Below are positions 31,868-39,107 of a DNA stretch of 64,000 bases, in pieces. The stretch's first letter is position 1. Each line of letters begins with the position of its first letter. Both the position numbers and the translations under genes were made by a program. The stretch is from Chlorobiales bacterium (GTDB taxonomy: Bacteria > Bacteroidota > Chlorobiia > Chlorobiales > Chlorobiaceae), in NCBI GenBank assembly GCA_022360275.1, contig JAKSDC010000019.1, positions 2,529 to 66,528 on the forward strand, given 5' to 3'. The notes under the pieces are model-generated. The model saw nothing but the letters and a program-made list of their open reading frames with translations, was not told the origin of the DNA and ran no database searches.

Positions 31868-32563
31868 ATGGGTAGAATAGCACAAAATCTGCAGCAAATA
31901 GATGAAGAGATCCGGTCTGTTTGCAGCAAGGCCGGCAGGAACCCGTCCGATATACGTCTGATTGCTGTTTCGAAAACCAAACCCGCAGCACTGGTAAAGG
32001 AGGCCTATGATGCAGGCCAGCTGGATATCGGTGAAAGCTATGTCCAGGAGTTTCTCGAAAAACAGGGCTCTGAAAAGCTTTCAGGTCTTCCGTTACAATG
32101 GCATTTCATCGGACACCTTCAGTCAAACAAGGTGAAAGATATTGTCGGTAAAGTTTCCCTGATCCACGGCATCGACAAAATCGGAACAGCACGGGAGTTG
32201 TCAAAACGGGCTTCAGCAAAAAACGTCGCAGCCGATTACCTCATCGAGATCAATACTTCCGGAGAAAGTTCAAAATTCGGCCTGTCCCCGGACGCACTCC
32301 TCTCTGAAGCCCCCTATTTTTTCGATCTCCCGAATATCCGTCTCAGAGGCCTCATGACTATTGCTTCGCCTGACAGGAACAAGGCCAGAGAGGAGTTTCG
32401 TATGCTTGCCAAACTGCTTGAACAGCTTAAGAAAATTTCGCCCAGCCCGGCTCTTCTGACAGAACTTTCCATGGGTATGAGTCAGGATTACGACATCGCC
32501 ATCGAAGAGGGAACAACAATGATCCGTATAGGAACCGCCATCTTCGGATCACGGCAGCGATAA
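31868..32563 (+). CDS. yggS: PLP homeostasis protein YggS/PlpHP
   Basis: AVSKTKP, WHFIGHLQSNK, LSMGMSQD, IRIGTAIFG. Confidence 0.95.
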   Translation: MGRIAQNLQQIDEEIRSVCSKAGRNPSDIRLIAVSKTKPAALVKEAYDAGQLDIGESYVQEFLEKQGSEKLSGLPLQWHFIGHLQSNKVKDIVGKVSLIHGIDKIGTARELSKRASAKNVAADYLIEINTSGESSKFGLSPDALLSEAPYFFDLPNIRLRGLMTIASPDRNKAREEFRMLAKLLEQLKKISPSPALLTELSMGMSQDYDIAIEEGTTMIRIGTAIFGSRQR

Positions 32564-32820
32564 AAGAGAATTGCTGAACTGTTGCGCCGTATGCCGCGAT
32601 GGCAGTGACCATCCATAAGGGTCTTTCTATGTATTGTCTGAAACCAATCAGCCATCTCGACCCGGCAATCAGAGCAAGGATACCGGGGCAATCGTCAAAT
32701 ATCACTTATTATCGAGCATAATTTGAATCGGTCGGTTCAGGATTTTATATTGCACGATTGATTATTTTGCAAAGTTTTTGCCCTTGAACCGAGGTCGTTA
32801 ACGCCGGGGTCCGTTACCAT

Positions 32821-34065
32821 ATGCCGTACTCAAATTCACCTGTCTTTATTCCGGCACAGCGTGTCCAGAATTATCATTACGCCATTCGCAACATTGTCAG
32901 CAATGCGCGGCGTCAGGAAGAACAGGGGAACACAGTCACCTACCTGAACATCGGTGACCCGGTACTGTATGATTTTCAACCGCCTGAAGAGCTTGTCGAA
33001 GCAACGGTTCTCGCTCTAAGGCAGGGACATAACGGCTACGCCCCATCATGCGGAAAAAAGGATGCAGTCGAGGCAATCGCCGAAGATGCTCTTTCACGCG
33101 GGATCCCGGTCTCCCCGGATAACATCATCATTACCTTTGGCGCTTCGGAAGCGGCAGACCTTGTATGTACTGCGATGCTGAATCCCGGTGACGAGGTGCT
33201 CTGCCCTTCCCCCGGCTATCCTCTCTATAATGCAATAATCGCCAAACTGAACGCAAGGGAGCTCCAGTACAAACTTGACCCTGACAACAGCTGGCATCCG
33301 GACCCGGAGGAGATTGAAAGCAAAATAACCCTCCGAACAAAGATTCTCGTTGTCATCAATCCGAACAACCCGACGGGGGCACTTTATCCTCCCGACTTGC
33401 TAAAGGAACTGGTCGATATTGCCCGCAGACACCGGCTGCTTATTATCACCGACGAGGTCTATCACAAACTTGTCTACGAAGAAGCACATACACCCCTTGC
33501 TTCGATGGCTGAAAATGATGTTGCGATAATCACCATTGACAGCTTGTCGAAAAACTATATGGCCCCCGGCTGGAGAATCGGCTGGCTTGCCATCACCAAC
33601 AGCCATCTTATTCCGGATGTACATTTTGCGTTTGTAAAACTTGCAGATGCAAGGCTTTGCGCCCCAATGGCCCCACAGTACGCCATCAAAGCCGCTATGA
33701 AATTGAGAAAGGACTATATTGAAAGCGTTATGAGCCGTCTGCGTGCTCAGAGGGATATTACCGTAGACATGCTGAACGCTATTCCGGGGATCAGTTGTAA
33801 CCACCCGAAAGGAGCATTTTACGTCATGGGCAAGGTCGATCTTGCCATGTCTCCATTCAATTCCGATGAAGAGTTTGTGCTGAAGCTTCTGCAGGAAAAA
33901 CAGGTGCTTTTCGTTCACGGCTCCGGATTTGGAACCGATCCCCTGCAAGGCTTTTTCAGGGTAGTCTTTCTGCCCGATGTATCGACGCTGAAAAAAGTGT
34001 ACAGCGATCTCGGAGATTTCGTCAAACAATACCAGCAACCTTTTTTCAAAGAACCCATAACATAA
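32821..34065 (+). CDS. Class I/II PLP aminotransferase (AlaA-like)
   Basis: LNIGDP, INPNNPTG, DEVY and SLSK..GWRIG (PLP Lys). Confidence 0.9.
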   Translation: MPYSNSPVFIPAQRVQNYHYAIRNIVSNARRQEEQGNTVTYLNIGDPVLYDFQPPEELVEATVLALRQGHNGYAPSCGKKDAVEAIAEDALSRGIPVSPDNIIITFGASEAADLVCTAMLNPGDEVLCPSPGYPLYNAIIAKLNARELQYKLDPDNSWHPDPEEIESKITLRTKILVVINPNNPTGALYPPDLLKELVDIARRHRLLIITDEVYHKLVYEEAHTPLASMAENDVAIITIDSLSKNYMAPGWRIGWLAITNSHLIPDVHFAFVKLADARLCAPMAPQYAIKAAMKLRKDYIESVMSRLRAQRDITVDMLNAIPGISCNHPKGAFYVMGKVDLAMSPFNSDEEFVLKLLQEKQVLFVHGSGFGTDPLQGFFRVVFLPDVSTLKKVYSDLGDFVKQYQQPFFKEPIT

Positions 34066-34077
34066 AACTGCTTCACC

Positions 34078-34899
34078 ATGATTGAACAACGTGCTAAAAT
34101 CCAGGAGGCCGTCTCGTTTATCCGCTCGAAAACCAGTGACGAATATCCTGTTGGAATCGTTCTCGGAACCGGTCTCGGCGCCCTGGCAAAAGAAATAAAT
34201 GTAGAACTGTCTCTCGATTACGGAGACATCCCCTATTTCCCCATTTCGACGGTTGAAACCCATCATGGCAAACTTATATTCGGCACTCTTGCGGGAAAAA
34301 AAGTTGTTGCAATGCAGGGACGGTTCCATTTCTACGAAGGCTATTCGATGCAGCAGATTGTGTTTCCTGTCAGAGTCATGAAACATCTCGGCGTAAAAAC
34401 CTTGGGCATAACCAATGCCTGCGGGGGGCTCAACCCGGCATTCAGTAAAGGCGACATCATGCTTATCGATGACCACATCAACTTCCTGGGAACCAATCCT
34501 CTTATCGGACCGAACGATCAGGAAATCGGACCGAGATTCCCGGACATGTGCGCCCCGTACTCCCCGGGAATTCTCGACATCGCCGAACAGGTTGCGCTCG
34601 AACATAAAATCAAGGTCCAGCGGGGTGTTTATGTCGCTCTTTCCGGTCCCTGCCTTGAAACCCGCGCAGAGTATCGCATGCTCCGTACCATCGGTGCAGA
34701 TGTTGTCGGCATGTCAACTGTTCCGGAAGTCATTGCCGCAGTACATCAGGGAACTGAAGTATTCGGCATGTCGATCATCACCGACGAGTGTTTCCCGGAC
34801 AACCTGGAACCCGTCAGTATCGAGGAAATTATTGAGGTCTCAAATGAAGCCGAACCGAAAATGACAACAATTTTCAAGAGCGTTGTCGAAAGACTTTAA
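34078..34899 (+). CDS. Trimeric-type purine nucleoside phosphorylase (possibly MTA/5'-deoxyadenosine phosphorylase)
   Basis: LGTGLG, QGRFHFYEG, TNACGG, GPCLET, VGMSTVPE, and ITD where human PNP has ITN. Confidence 0.9.
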   Translation: MIEQRAKIQEAVSFIRSKTSDEYPVGIVLGTGLGALAKEINVELSLDYGDIPYFPISTVETHHGKLIFGTLAGKKVVAMQGRFHFYEGYSMQQIVFPVRVMKHLGVKTLGITNACGGLNPAFSKGDIMLIDDHINFLGTNPLIGPNDQEIGPRFPDMCAPYSPGILDIAEQVALEHKIKVQRGVYVALSGPCLETRAEYRMLRTIGADVVGMSTVPEVIAAVHQGTEVFGMSIITDECFPDNLEPVSIEEIIEVSNEAEPKMTTIFKSVVERL

Positions 34900-34919
34900 C
34901 TTTTAAACACTTAACCACA

Positions 34920-35981
34920 ATGATCGACGCCGTTTCTTTTGAAAACAATACCCTTGGCTATCTCGACCAGCGATTTCTTCCGTTGAAAGAGGATTACATC
35001 AGGACAAAAGATTACCGGGAAGCTATCGAGGCCATCAAAACCCTTGCCGTCAGAGGTGCTCCGCTCATTGGTATCGTCGCAGGCTATACCGTTATGCTGG
35101 GGCTTAACAGTTACGAGGGTAACAAGGAAGAGTTTCCTCCCTACTTTGAAAACCTCATACAGGAAGTCGAAGCTTCAAGACCCACCGCCGTCAACCTTTT
35201 CTTTGCCACTGCACGCATGAAAGAGGTATACGATGCTCACTTTGCGTCGGATTCTCTCGAAGAACTCTTTTCGAAGATGCTTGTTGCCGCGAAAAAAATC
35301 CATGCTGACGAGATTGCAAACTGCGATAACATGGCCCGTCACGGCGTGGAACTCATCAAACAGGATCTTGCCGAAACCCTCAGGACGAGAAAGCTCAATG
35401 TTCTTACCCACTGCAATACCGGTACTCTGGCAACAGGAGGGTCGGGAACTGCCCTGGGGGTCATCAAACATGCCTGGAAGGAAGGTCTTATTGAAAAAGT
35501 CATCACGGCGGAAAGCCGGCCTCTGCTGCAGGGACTGCGGCTTACCGCATGGGAACTTGAAAACGAAAACATTCCTTTCATTTCGATTTCAGATTCATCT
35601 TCGGCCTTCCTCATGCAAAAAGGCATGATCGATTTCGGCATTGTCGGTGCTGATAGAATTGCGGCCAACGGAGACACCGCAAATAAAATAGGGACGTTCG
35701 CCCATGCTGTCAGCGCATCGATTTACAATGTACCATATTACATTGCAGCCCCGGTATCCACTATCGACATAACCATCAATGACGGCTCGCAAATCCCTAT
35801 CGAAGAACGAAGTGCCGATGAGCTGAGGACAATTTTCGGTACACAGGTTGCCGCACCATCCACACCCGTTCTGAATTATGCGTTCGATGTGACACCCAAT
35901 CAGTACATCCGGGGTATCGTCACGGATAAAAAAGCCGTTGTCGGCAGTTATTCCGAAGAATTGCAAAAACTTGTCGACTAA
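34920..35981 (+). CDS. mtnA: S-methyl-5-thioribose-1-phosphate isomerase
   Basis: LDQR, VRGAP, SRPTAVNL, THCNTGTLAT, GADRIAANGDTANKIGT. Confidence 0.95.
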   Translation: MIDAVSFENNTLGYLDQRFLPLKEDYIRTKDYREAIEAIKTLAVRGAPLIGIVAGYTVMLGLNSYEGNKEEFPPYFENLIQEVEASRPTAVNLFFATARMKEVYDAHFASDSLEELFSKMLVAAKKIHADEIANCDNMARHGVELIKQDLAETLRTRKLNVLTHCNTGTLATGGSGTALGVIKHAWKEGLIEKVITAESRPLLQGLRLTAWELENENIPFISISDSSSAFLMQKGMIDFGIVGADRIAANGDTANKIGTFAHAVSASIYNVPYYIAAPVSTIDITINDGSQIPIEERSADELRTIFGTQVAAPSTPVLNYAFDVTPNQYIRGIVTDKKAVVGSYSEELQKLVD

Positions 35982-36006: not shown

Positions 36007-36190
36007 AAAGAGGCTGTCTCAAAAGGGCGGCCTCGCGTATTTTGAGCCGACAATCGACATCTCTCCTGACTGTCATCCATCCCCGGGCCTGCCCCGTGAA
36101 ATCAAAAGCATCTGTAAAATCTCTTGGATGCCCGGATTTCCGTAAAAACAAAAAAGCTGCCTCATAATCGACTTATGAGACAACCTCTTT
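36007..36190. mobile_element. MITE-like 184-bp element
   Basis: Ends aaagaggctgtctcaaaag / cttatgagacaacctcttt (17/19 IR); an 18/20 copy of the left end at 22211-22230; internal REP-like hairpin. No transposase in the window. Confidence 0.55.
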
Positions 36191-36425: not shown

Positions 36426-36821
36426 ATGAAAAACAGGTTACATAAGGAAAAAAACGAACCATCCGACAACTCGTTGCAGATCTTCAACTACAGTGACTTT
36501 CTTGATCGTGTGATGGGAGACCAGGAGCTGGCCACGAGTATTCTCGAAGAGTTTGCAGGATTGATCGGGCAACATGCAGAAAAGTTGCGCCATGCGGTTG
36601 AATCCGGAGATCATGAAAGCATCAGACAGATCGGCCACATGATCAAAGGCGAATCGGGCAACATCAGCGCCCCCGCCCTGTATGAAAGCTCCTATGCGAT
36701 TGAAAAAGCGGGAAAAGCTCAAAACAGCAGCGAACAGAACGAACTTCTCCCGGTGCTGCTTGCAGACATTGACAATCTAACACACGCAATCCGGGAAGTT
36801 TTGCAAAAAGAGGGCAAGTAA
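36426..36821 (+). CDS. Stand-alone HPt (histidine phosphotransfer) protein
   Basis: RVMGDQEL..ILEEF and GHMIKGESGNISA (H.+KG motif); all-helical, 131 aa. Confidence 0.88.
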   Translation: MKNRLHKEKNEPSDNSLQIFNYSDFLDRVMGDQELATSILEEFAGLIGQHAEKLRHAVESGDHESIRQIGHMIKGESGNISAPALYESSYAIEKAGKAQNSSEQNELLPVLLADIDNLTHAIREVLQKEGK

Positions 36822-37261: not shown

Positions 37262-37364
37262 TCAATCGTAATTAGTCAATAGTCGATACTCGTCACTGTG
37301 CTTGGATGTTTGGACAATCGCTCAATGCAGGGCAAAGAATCAGGAAAGAATCCAAAACCAGATC

Positions 37365-39107
37365 ATGAATCTTGACCGGAGGCTTCTTCTGCTCGCCAAG
37401 CAGTATCCAATACCGTTCATTGCATCGATTTTATTTGGTTTGCTTGGCGGAATCGCGCTCATCGGTCAAGCATCCCTGCTGAGCAGGATCATAGACACAA
37501 TTTTTCTGAAACACACAGGGCTTGAGAATATTCTGAAGCTCCTGTTTTTGTTTGCTCTTTTCAGCATCTTTCGGGCTCTCTTTAACTGGACAAGCGAAAG
37601 CGAAGCGAACAGGGGAACCTTGAAAATAAAGCAGTCCCTCCATGAAAGGCTTATGGAGAAGCTTTCCGCTCTTGGCCCTGCCTATACCGGCTCGGTACAG
37701 AGCGGGAAACTGAGCGTTAACCTCCTCAAAGGCGTCGAGTCCCTTGACCCTTATTTCAGCCAGTATATCCCGCAGCTTGCTCTCTCTTCGCTGATTCCGC
37801 TAACGATTCTCGCAGTGGTTTTTCCGACCGACGTATTCAGTGGCTTCATTCTGCTTACAACTGCCCCGCTGATTCCGCTTTTTATGCTCCTGATCGGCAA
37901 GGCAGCAAAAAAAGTAACGGCAAAACAGTGGGAAACGTTGAGCAGAATGAGCGGTAACTTCCTCGACGTCCTGCAGGGTCTTACAACACTCAAACTTTTC
38001 GGTAGAAGCCGGGAAAGGAAACAATCAATATTCGAAATCAGCGAGGCATTCAGACATGCAACCATGAAAGTTCTGAAAGTTGCCTTTCTTTCTTCGCTTG
38101 CGCTGGAACTTGTCGGCACCATTGGCACGGCGATCATCGCGGTCTCGATAGGCCTGAGGCTGTGGAACGGGTCGATCGGCTTCGAATCCGCACTGTTCAT
38201 TCTCCTGCTTACGCCTGATTTCTATCTTCCTCTCCGGCAACTGGGAACAAAATTTCATGCAGGAATGGAAGGAGTCAGTGCCGCACACGATATTTTCACT
38301 CTTCTCGACAAGCCTGAACCGGAAAAAGAGATCACCGCACACCCGTCCGACACCCTTGATTATTCCAAGGAAAACATTGTCTTTGAAAACGTAAGGTTCT
38401 CCTACGACGGCAGCGGCACATACGCATTACAGCAAATCAACTGCACGTTAAAGCCCTGCAATACAATCGCAATAACAGGACCGAGCGGTGCAGGCAAAAC
38501 AACGTTCATCAACCTGCTCCTGCGTTTCATCGATCCGTGCGGAGGCGCAATCATGATTGGAGGCAAAGCTCTTCAAAGCATTGAACGTGAACAATGGCTG
38601 CAACGGGTAGCCTGGATTCCCCAACATCCCTATTTTTTCAATGCGACGCTCAGGGAAAATCTTCTTCTTGCCAAAAAGGATGCAACCGAAGATGAACTGA
38701 TGACAGCCGTTGAATACTGCCGTCTTGGCTCTTTTGTCGATTCACTGCCACAGGGACTGGATACGCATATCGGTGAGCAGGGGACCAGAATCAGCGGCGG
38801 CGAAGCACAACGCCTGTCATTCGCAAGGGCATTTATCAAGGAGGCCCCGATACTGGTGCTTGATGAACCCACTTCACACACCGATCCGACACTTGAGCAA
38901 GAGCTGCTTGAATCCATGAACAGGCTGACCAAAGGAAAAACCTCTGTAATAATCGCACATCGCTTGAGTACCGTAAAAGACGCTGATCATATACTGGTAT
39001 TCGATAAAGGACGGATTGTACAATCCGGTTCACATTCGTCGCTCATGAAAGAAGATGGTTTTTACCGTAACGCGCTGCGAACGTTTCAGGAGAACACCGC
39101 GGTATGA
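37365..39107 (+). CDS. cydD: Thiol-reductant ABC exporter subunit CydD
   Basis: ABC TMD with PLIPLFM and RQLGTKFHA; GPSGAGKTT, SGGEAQR, LDEPTS. ATG 37365 preferred over the TTG in the ORF track. Confidence 0.9.
   Translation: MNLDRRLLLLAKQYPIPFIASILFGLLGGIALIGQASLLSRIIDTIFLKHTGLENILKLLFLFALFSIFRALFNWTSESEANRGTLKIKQSLHERLMEKLSALGPAYTGSVQSGKLSVNLLKGVESLDPYFSQYIPQLALSSLIPLTILAVVFPTDVFSGFILLTTAPLIPLFMLLIGKAAKKVTAKQWETLSRMSGNFLDVLQGLTTLKLFGRSRERKQSIFEISEAFRHATMKVLKVAFLSSLALELVGTIGTAIIAVSIGLRLWNGSIGFESALFILLLTPDFYLPLRQLGTKFHAGMEGVSAAHDIFTLLDKPEPEKEITAHPSDTLDYSKENIVFENVRFSYDGSGTYALQQINCTLKPCNTIAITGPSGAGKTTFINLLLRFIDPCGGAIMIGGKALQSIEREQWLQRVAWIPQHPYFFNATLRENLLLAKKDATEDELMTAVEYCRLGSFVDSLPQGLDTHIGEQGTRISGGEAQRLSFARAFIKEAPILVLDEPTSHTDPTLEQELLESMNRLTKGKTSVIIAHRLSTVKDADHILVFDKGRIVQSGSHSSLMKEDGFYRNALRTFQENTAV

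Follow-up and report, generated by a model that had tools for sequence, protein, structure and literature searches.

Organisms with radical S-adenosylmethionine (SAM) enzymes have to dispose of 5'-deoxyadenosine, an inhibitor of these same enzymes, and MtnN and MtnP are the textbook enzymes for its removal. Green sulfur bacteria have many radical-SAM enzymes, on which they depend to make bacteriochlorophyll and the nitrogenase cofactor. Which enzyme carries out this removal in them? The question is raised by a locus in a 64,000-nucleotide stretch of DNA from a member of the Chlorobiaceae (assembly GCA_022360275.1, contig JAKSDC010000019.1), the whole of which we call the window. Three plus-strand open reading frames (ORFs) in this 64-kb window encode an aminotransferase, a purine nucleoside phosphorylase (PNP) and the isomerase MtnA, with gaps of 12 nt and then 20 nt, as an initial annotation of the window had stated. 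That annotation had also proposed that the PNP, through changes in its substrate pocket, feeds MtnA with products of methylthioadenosine (MTA) or 5'-deoxyadenosine. We observed that the PNP belongs to a widespread subfamily with its own set of pocket residues, which we call type A. The proposal rests on comparative evidence and is supported by a pathway hole, by synteny and by residue covariation; we put the probability that the type A PNP is a 5'-deoxyadenosine/MTA phosphorylase feeding MtnA in the Chlorobiaceae at roughly two in three. Such a PNP paralog, its 5' pocket remodelled, would close the gap in 5'-deoxyadenosine removal.

MtnA is present where its known suppliers were not found

The strongest argument for the proposed role of the type A PNP is the pathway hole. 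We sampled 151 Bacteroidota genomes that were at least 90% complete (32 Chlorobiaceae and 119 others), and scored MtnA as present where a match to the window's MtnA had E <= 1e-15. MtnA was found in 84 of the 151. At the cut-offs used, neither MTAP nor MtnK was found in any of the 151 genomes, and MtnN was found in eight, none of which carried mtnA. Since MTAP, MtnK and MtnN did not reach their cut-offs in any of the mtnA-positive genomes, MtnA is without a known supplier in 84 out of 84. A PNP at least 55% identical to the window PNP was present in every one of these 84 genomes. When 29 of these PNP sequences were inspected, all of them had Leu200 and Asp243 (numbering as explained below), and the residue at position 257 was hydrophobic in 28 and His in one.

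In the genome to which the window belongs (97.5% complete), we found no MTAP, MtnK or MtnD (ARD family). No MtnN-type member of PF01048 was found in it either; besides the PNP, there were one hexameric-class protein (discussed below) and one false match. The PF01048 match on contig 201 was ruled out as a nucleosidase, as it is a CO-dehydrogenase-like protein. S-Adenosylhomocysteine is taken care of by AdoHcyase, which is present. The initial annotation had held that a separate MTAP or MtnN-MtnK route, without conserved linkage of the PNP gene to mtnA, would speak against its proposal; we found no such route, and the Chlorobiaceae have kept the linkage, as described below.

As a check outside the phylum, we chose, without knowing the result beforehand, five genomes with type A PNPs, one each from Gemmatimonadota, Planctomycetota, FCPU426, WOR-3 and Calditrichota. 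MtnA was present in all five, and MTAP and MtnN were each found in none of them.

Pocket residues of the PNP and its subfamily

The window protein exceeded the cut-off of both trimeric PNP models (NF006054, 391 bits against 218; TIGR01700, 317 against 293) and stayed far below that of the MTAP model TIGR01694 (77 against 275). An AlphaFold2 monomer model of the PNP (pLDDT 93) had 4m1e and 4lna, both of the trimeric class, as its closest structures. By sequence and by predicted structure, it is thus placed inside the PNP clade and outside the MTAP family. The PNP is single-copy in all 61 Chlorobiaceae genomes, with 82-100% identity, and its nearest named homolog, from Prosthecochloris sp. GSB1, is 89% identical. 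The expectation that the gene would be auto-annotated as a generic PNP was correct; the homologs all carry a plain PNP annotation, and one is labelled 'inosine and guanosine-specific'.

Residues are numbered here as in human PNP, for which an animal-type representative (P0243), carrying SLITNKV and NHEEV, served as a stand-in. In the alignment, D236 of the window PNP falls on Asn243, I248 on His257, L193 on Phe200, T31 on Ser33 and E237 on K244. The motifs SIITDECF and VSIEEI, reported in the initial annotation, were both found, and the N243D and H257I-equivalent changes that it had read from them are real; the F200L and S33T equivalents had been overlooked, as had the sharing of the set by a whole subfamily. 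The ligands R82, H84, Y86, E194, M212 and S213 (human R84, H86, Y88, E201, M219 and S220) are kept. Asn243, which underlies 6-oxopurine specificity, is not kept and is Asp236 in the window protein. His257 and Phe200, which pack against the 5'-OH side of ribose, are not kept either, and are Ile248 and Leu193. The pocket would have lost both of the residues that pack against this side, and would present an Asp in place of Asn at the position that discriminates between purines.

We compared 150 PNP representatives with at most 50% mutual identity, and observed that positions 33, 200 and 257 covary. Residue 257 was hydrophobic in 40 of the 44 representatives with Leu200, and in five of about 88 with Phe or Tyr at position 200. 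The Leu200 group has two forms, one with Asp243 (type A, 21 sequences) and the other with Asn243 (type D, 19 sequences), and the two were interleaved in a FastTree tree. As judged from these alignments, the residue set T33/L200/D243/hydrophobic 257 marks a widespread PNP subfamily, found in at least nine phyla and mostly away from mtnA. The window PNP is therefore not a private oddity, since the same residue changes define the whole subfamily. Two of its members have solved structures, 4m1e from Planctomyces limnophilus and 4lna from Spirosoma linguale. Both have Leu200, Asp243 and Leu at 257, are 53-54% identical to the window PNP with TM-scores of 0.96-0.98, and are labelled with the generic name 'purine nucleoside phosphorylase I'. 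The type D sequences, with Leu200, hydrophobic 257 and Asn243 (P0131, P0136, P0140, P0146, P0158, P0165 and others; also G112, G173 and G115), could be 5'-deoxyinosine/methylthioinosine phosphorylases that act after a deaminase.

The trimeric PNPs (PNPH/PunA; human, bovine and B. fragilis 8swt) share the fold of the window PNP, with TM-scores of 0.94-0.97 and 44-54% identity. However, the window PNP has the covarying set Asn243 to Asp, His257 to Ile, Phe200 to Leu and Ser33 to Thr, and type A is a separate paralog that is linked to mtnA and not to deoB or deoC. Many genomes hold a type A PNP along with a canonical S33/Y200/N243/H257 PNP. In planctomycetes, the type A gene is directly followed on the same strand by a second PNP homolog (loci L111, L138, L163, L096 and L128). 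This second copy has S33/Y200/N243/H257 in L111, L138 and L163, has Ala at 257 in L128, and is a tblastn match only in L096. The coexistence of type A and canonical PNPs, including in tandem, implies that they have different jobs. Fusions to DeoC, DeoB or a TrmE-like GTPase were seen among canonical PNPs (P0135, P0182, P0233, P0178, P0230, P0138, P0141, P0155, P0199, P0220 and P0262, a list in which fusions and three-stretch proteins are pooled); the fusion search found none with type A, and the DeoB, DeoC and TrmE fusions were confined to canonical PNPs. The three-stretch proteins are a set of 820-890 aa, each with three PNP-like stretches.

The Chlorobiaceae retain type A as their sole PNP. 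A tblastn search of the window's genome found neither DeoB nor DeoC, and with no phosphopentomutase, ribose-1-phosphate would therefore have no outlet there. The paralog kept by this streamlined autotroph is the one that, from its residues, is predicted to lack ligands for the 5'-OH.

Linkage of the PNP gene to mtnA

Both genes are present in 61 of 61 Chlorobiaceae genomes. In 57 of these the two genes were on one contig, and in 54 of the 57 mtnA lies on the same strand at most 200 nt downstream of the PNP gene. The three others have inserts of 1.5, 7.5 and 7.9 kb between the two genes (G012:C65, G004:C12 and G001:C20). In other Bacteroidota the adjacency has been lost, except in G169, where the two genes are 0.9 kb apart.

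For a wider sample of neighbourhoods we took 80 loci with type A genes, spread over at least nine phyla. In only three of them was mtnA directly downstream of the PNP gene: in a Chlorobiaceae metagenome-assembled genome (MAG), in a MAG of candidate division FCPU426, and in one uncultured bacterium whose MtnA-like gene scored slightly under the cut-off. The gap in the FCPU426 locus is 10 nt, and its MtnA scored 434 bits. This adjacency arose independently of that in the Chlorobiaceae, so that the linkage has at least two independent origins. As mtnA adjacency is rare beyond the Chlorobiaceae, the linkage alone is modest evidence.

The common gene order elsewhere is YggS, DivIVA-domain protein, PNP, IleS, DksA/TraR-like protein and LspA. 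We observed this order in L109, L112, L113 and L133 and in about 25 other loci, across Ignavibacteria, Gemmatimonadota, Calditrichota and Omnitrophota. In 30 of the 80 loci, from other phyla, a YggS homolog precedes the PNP gene, and YggS is upstream in the window too. As far as gene order can indicate, type A PNP genes of many phyla ancestrally had YggS as their upstream neighbour. The same dcw-end neighbourhood in Firmicutes contains YlmD, a different purine-nucleoside enzyme.

Proposed reactions and the steps after MtnA

The window's MtnA scored 391 bits on TIGR00512 (cut-off 279), and 124 bits on the ribose-1,5-bisphosphate isomerase (e2b2) model, for which the cut-off is 314. It matched the T. 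maritima MtnA (PDB 1t9k) at 3e-78, and the motifs THCN.G and GADRIA.NGD.ANKIGT align identically. We take these motifs to hold the catalytic Cys and Asp, as in the B. subtilis enzyme.

In the reactions that we propose, the PNP would use phosphate to convert 5'-deoxyadenosine, the by-product of radical-SAM enzymes, into adenine and 5-deoxyribose-1-phosphate. MTA, when made, would likewise give adenine and methylthioribose-1-phosphate. MtnA would then isomerise 5-deoxyribose-1-phosphate or methylthioribose-1-phosphate to the ribulose-1-phosphate form. Of the two nucleosides, 5'-deoxyadenosine is more probably the main substrate and MTA a secondary one, because no spermidine synthase domain was found in the window's genome, radical-SAM enzymes are many in these bacteria, and nif genes are present in the same 64-kb window.

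The proposed reaction, and its place directly before MtnA, are those of MtnP (MTAP). Like the window PNP, MTAP presumably carries an Asp where the purine is recognised and, in place of the His257 of PNP, a hydrophobic residue, yet the window PNP lies outside the MTAP family by the scores given above. If the proposal holds, a PNP subfamily has taken over the role of MtnP as a paralog, and the Chlorobiaceae operon would be the clearest genomic signpost of this takeover. MtnP also acts on 5'-deoxyadenosine, in the dihydroxyacetone phosphate (DHAP) shunt of Rhodospirillum rubrum and in Synechococcus (PMC8102628, PMC10986504). The DHAP shunt (MtnP, or MtnN with MtnK; MtnA/DrdI; Ald2/DrdA) shares its first two steps, phosphorolysis and then isomerisation by MtnA, with the proposed route. 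It differs in that the phosphorylase here would be a PNP paralog, there is no stand-alone Ald2, and the aldolase domain is fused to a short-chain dehydrogenase/reductase (SDR) on another contig.

The initial annotation had noted the lack of mtnB, mtnC, mtnD and a class II aldolase gene in the window. We found no stand-alone class II aldolase, MtnB or MtnD in the window or in the whole genome, and MtnB was not found in 31 Chlorobiaceae either. Canonical aerobic methionine salvage, which proceeds through the MtnB dehydratase and the MtnD dioxygenase, was therefore not found in the window's genome. MtnD requires O2.

The genome has a single class II aldolase domain (PF00596), which forms the N-terminal half of an aldolase/SDR fusion of 705 aa encoded on contig 49. 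This domain is the best downstream candidate, and would yield DHAP and acetaldehyde (or its reduced product), comparable to the DHAP shunt. The fusion (NF006193, 1323 bits) lies in a cluster with an LsrF-like DhnA-family aldolase (NF006081, 512 bits) and a Photo-type RuBisCO-like protein (RLP); an SDR, an LptE-like protein and a second SDR are also part of this cluster. The aldolase/SDR fusion was present in 29 of 31 Chlorobiaceae; among the Chlorobiales it was missing from G007, G025, Chloroherpeton and family f3. Outside the Chlorobiaceae, the matches to it were rhamnose-type fusions unrelated to mtnA.

The Photo-type RLP is near-universal in the Chlorobiaceae. Its distribution is no test within the family, since mtnA is also universal there. 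Elsewhere in the 151-genome sample, weak RLP matches fell in mtnA-positive genomes in 13 of 13 cases, and MtnB/Ald2-like aldolase matches in the Bacteroidota did so in 16 of 18. As these post-MtnA genes track mtnA, MtnA appears to do its usual job in these Bacteroidota. In one non-Chlorobi member of the Bacteroidota, a distant RuBisCO-like protein is encoded about 7 kb from a type A PNP (G174:C180:37238-45292).

Beyond the Chlorobiaceae, we lean, with some reserve, towards type A being a phosphorylase for 5'-deoxyadenosine/MTA across whole phyla without MtnP and MtnN (Bacteroidota including Chlorobiaceae, Planctomycetota, Gemmatimonadota, Omnitrophota, Calditrichota, WOR-3 and FCPU426). The full chain is improbable; it would join a phylum-wide type A activity and a 5'-deoxyinosine/methylthioinosine version in type D to consumption of the product, in the Chlorobiaceae, by the cluster of aldolase/SDR, LsrF-like aldolase and Photo-type RLP. 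If it were true, the Photo-type RLP, whose function has been open since 2001, would gain a substrate.

Evidence against the proposed role and alternative explanations

Several observations weigh against the role proposed for the type A PNP. About 20 genomes of the sample carry type A but lack mtnA, five of them together with MtnN; feeding MtnA is therefore not the sole role of the enzyme. Outside the Chlorobiaceae, the usual neighbours of type A are YggS, the DivIVA-domain protein, IleS and LspA, and not mtnA, and synteny inside one family may be mere inheritance. A B. fragilis PNP with D243 and H257 has been crystallised with Immucillin-H. Because this PNP binds Immucillin-H, Asp243 alone is weak evidence, and 6-oxopurines are not excluded; the Asp that the initial annotation had taken as a mark of 6-aminopurine use is present, but is not decisive by itself. 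The solved type A members, 4m1e and 4lna, are structural-genomics deposits for which our literature search found no functional study. Nor did the search bring up a paper dealing with the PNP subfamily, with how Chlorobi metabolise MTA, or with the phosphorylase that is missing in Bacteroidota. Further, the match of I248 to the Val233 pocket of MTAP is a presumed one.

The steps after MtnA add to these points. No downstream enzyme is linked to PNP-mtnA, and the candidate cluster lies on another contig. Both the aldolase/SDR fusion and the RLP are absent from G025 and from all three of the sampled f3 genomes, which retain PNP and MtnA. (This sister family includes G133, in which the PNP coordinates are those of the Ca. 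Thermochlorobacter locus L100.) In R. palustris, no role in MTA metabolism was found for the Photo-type RLP (PMC5893883).

The alternative that survives best is that the window protein is an ordinary broad-specificity PNP for adenosine, inosine and guanosine salvage, that its adjacency to mtnA is an inherited accident, and that MtnA obtains its substrate from some other source. We consider this unlikely. The protein does exceed the cut-offs of inosine/guanosine PNP models, and its remaining phosphate- and ribose-binding residues are intact, but the coordinated loss of His257 and Phe200 would be left unexplained. The housekeeping cluster with yggS and ileS in most phyla, the roughly 20 genomes with type A and no mtnA, and the binding of Immucillin-H by a D243-bearing PNP are all in keeping with ordinary salvage; the coexistence with a canonical PNP, in tandem in some cases, is not accounted for. 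Nor does this explanation tell us why autotrophs without DeoB and DeoC retain only type A, and it leaves MtnA without a substrate source in all 84 of the mtnA-positive genomes.

The initial annotation had also suggested that the aminotransferase might be the MtnE-type last step, in which case the three genes would represent the two ends of methionine salvage. This suggestion is not supported, and we now regard it as quite improbable. The best PDB matches of the aminotransferase were the Pyrococcus furiosus 1xi9 (3.5e-94) and the E. coli AlaA 4cvq, and its closest characterised relatives are alanine aminotransferases. It scored 400 bits on the NCBIfam alanine aminotransferase model, which is under the cut-off of that model, and came close to the cut-off of the tyrosine/nicotianamine aminotransferase family, a point in favour of MtnE. 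The ortholog also always abuts the PNP gene, being directly upstream of it in 21 of the 21 Chlorobiaceae that have it, and likewise in Ca. Thermochlorobacter. However, this position may equally reflect linkage to the upstream pyridoxal phosphate (PLP)-binding protein YggS, and the gene is absent from about 40 of the 61 Chlorobiaceae, or some two-thirds, that retain PNP-mtnA. By genus, 15 of 17 genomes had it in that of the window, compared with 5 of 22 in a second genus and none of 21 in the third. Since MtnB and MtnD are absent from the genome, there is no known route to the keto-acid substrate of MtnE.

We give very little credence to a ribose-catabolic shortcut, in which PNP and MtnA would lead from nucleoside to ribose-1-phosphate, ribulose-1-phosphate and finally DHAP and glycolaldehyde, with no role in SAM by-products. 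With no phosphopentomutase found in the genome, ribose-1-phosphate would need another outlet, and the shortcut would offer one; but MtnA is a full-scoring member of the methylthioribose-1-phosphate isomerase model, and the loss of the ligand for the 5'-OH from the PNP pocket speaks against substrates that bear ribose. Moreover, as photoautotrophs, green sulfur bacteria have little need to burn nucleosides.

Least probable of all is that the true MTA/5'-deoxyadenosine phosphorylase is the 259-aa hexameric-class protein on contig 41, with the window PNP unrelated to SAM by-products, for although 1jds, the hexameric MTA phosphorylase of Sulfolobus solfataricus (4e-10), and 1odi, the PNP of T. thermophilus, are among its best matches in the PDB, its gene adjoins a glycosyltransferase-like gene and an SDR, was found in 3 of the 32 sampled Chlorobiaceae and in none of the 119 other genomes of the phylum, is ruled out as a housekeeping gene by its presence in only three of 151 genomes, and is so sparsely distributed that it cannot supply a family-wide function.

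If type A PNPs are indeed 5'-deoxyadenosine/MTA phosphorylases, the annotation of thousands of genes would be corrected, some of which are now called 'inosine and guanosine-specific', and T33/L200/D243/hydrophobic 257 would become a signature for predicting the activity. The finding also reopens the fate of 5-deoxyribulose-1-phosphate in anaerobes, and the possible involvement of Photo-type RuBisCO-like proteins in it. Chlorobaculum tepidum is genetically tractable.

Gene layout and transcription signals

The features of the locus, together with the two regions on other contigs discussed above, are collected in Table 1. Transcription of the aminotransferase, PNP and mtnA genes as one unit is plausible, because the gaps are short, a promoter-like site lies upstream and a terminator-like hairpin follows.

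Table 1. Positions of the genes and signals at the PNP-mtnA locus (numbered from the first letter of the window) and of two regions elsewhere in the same genome (G000)
Feature	Location	Strand	Remarks
YggS-family PLP-binding protein	31868..32563	+	TIGR00044, 209 bits; context, outside the pathway
Sigma-70-like promoter match upstream of the aminotransferase gene	32723..32751	+	Consensus scan, 9/12 positions; pattern match only
AlaA-family (alanine/glutamate-pyruvate type) PLP aminotransferase, 414 aa	32821..34065	+	Variable first gene of the unit
Trimeric-class PNP, type A, 273 aa	34078..34899	+	Predicted 5'-deoxyadenosine/MTA phosphorylase
MtnA, 5-methylthioribose-1-phosphate / 5-deoxyribose-1-phosphate isomerase, 353 aa	34920..35981	+	TIGR00512
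Terminator-like hairpin, 29 nt past the mtnA stop	36010..36034	+	10-pair stem (6 GC), T-rich tail; pattern match only
Region with the 259-aa hexameric-class nucleoside phosphorylase-like gene	G000 contig 41, L006:400-2611	-	Between a glycosyltransferase-like ORF and a FabG-like SDR; accessory
RLP cluster	G000 contig 49, L004:5885-12657	-	Contains the genome's only class II aldolase domain

A second terminator-like hairpin, on the minus strand at 36190-36150, faces the plus-strand hairpin at 36010-36034. The pair sits between mtnA and a small receiver-domain-like ORF (36426-36821), next to which comes CydD (37302-39107).

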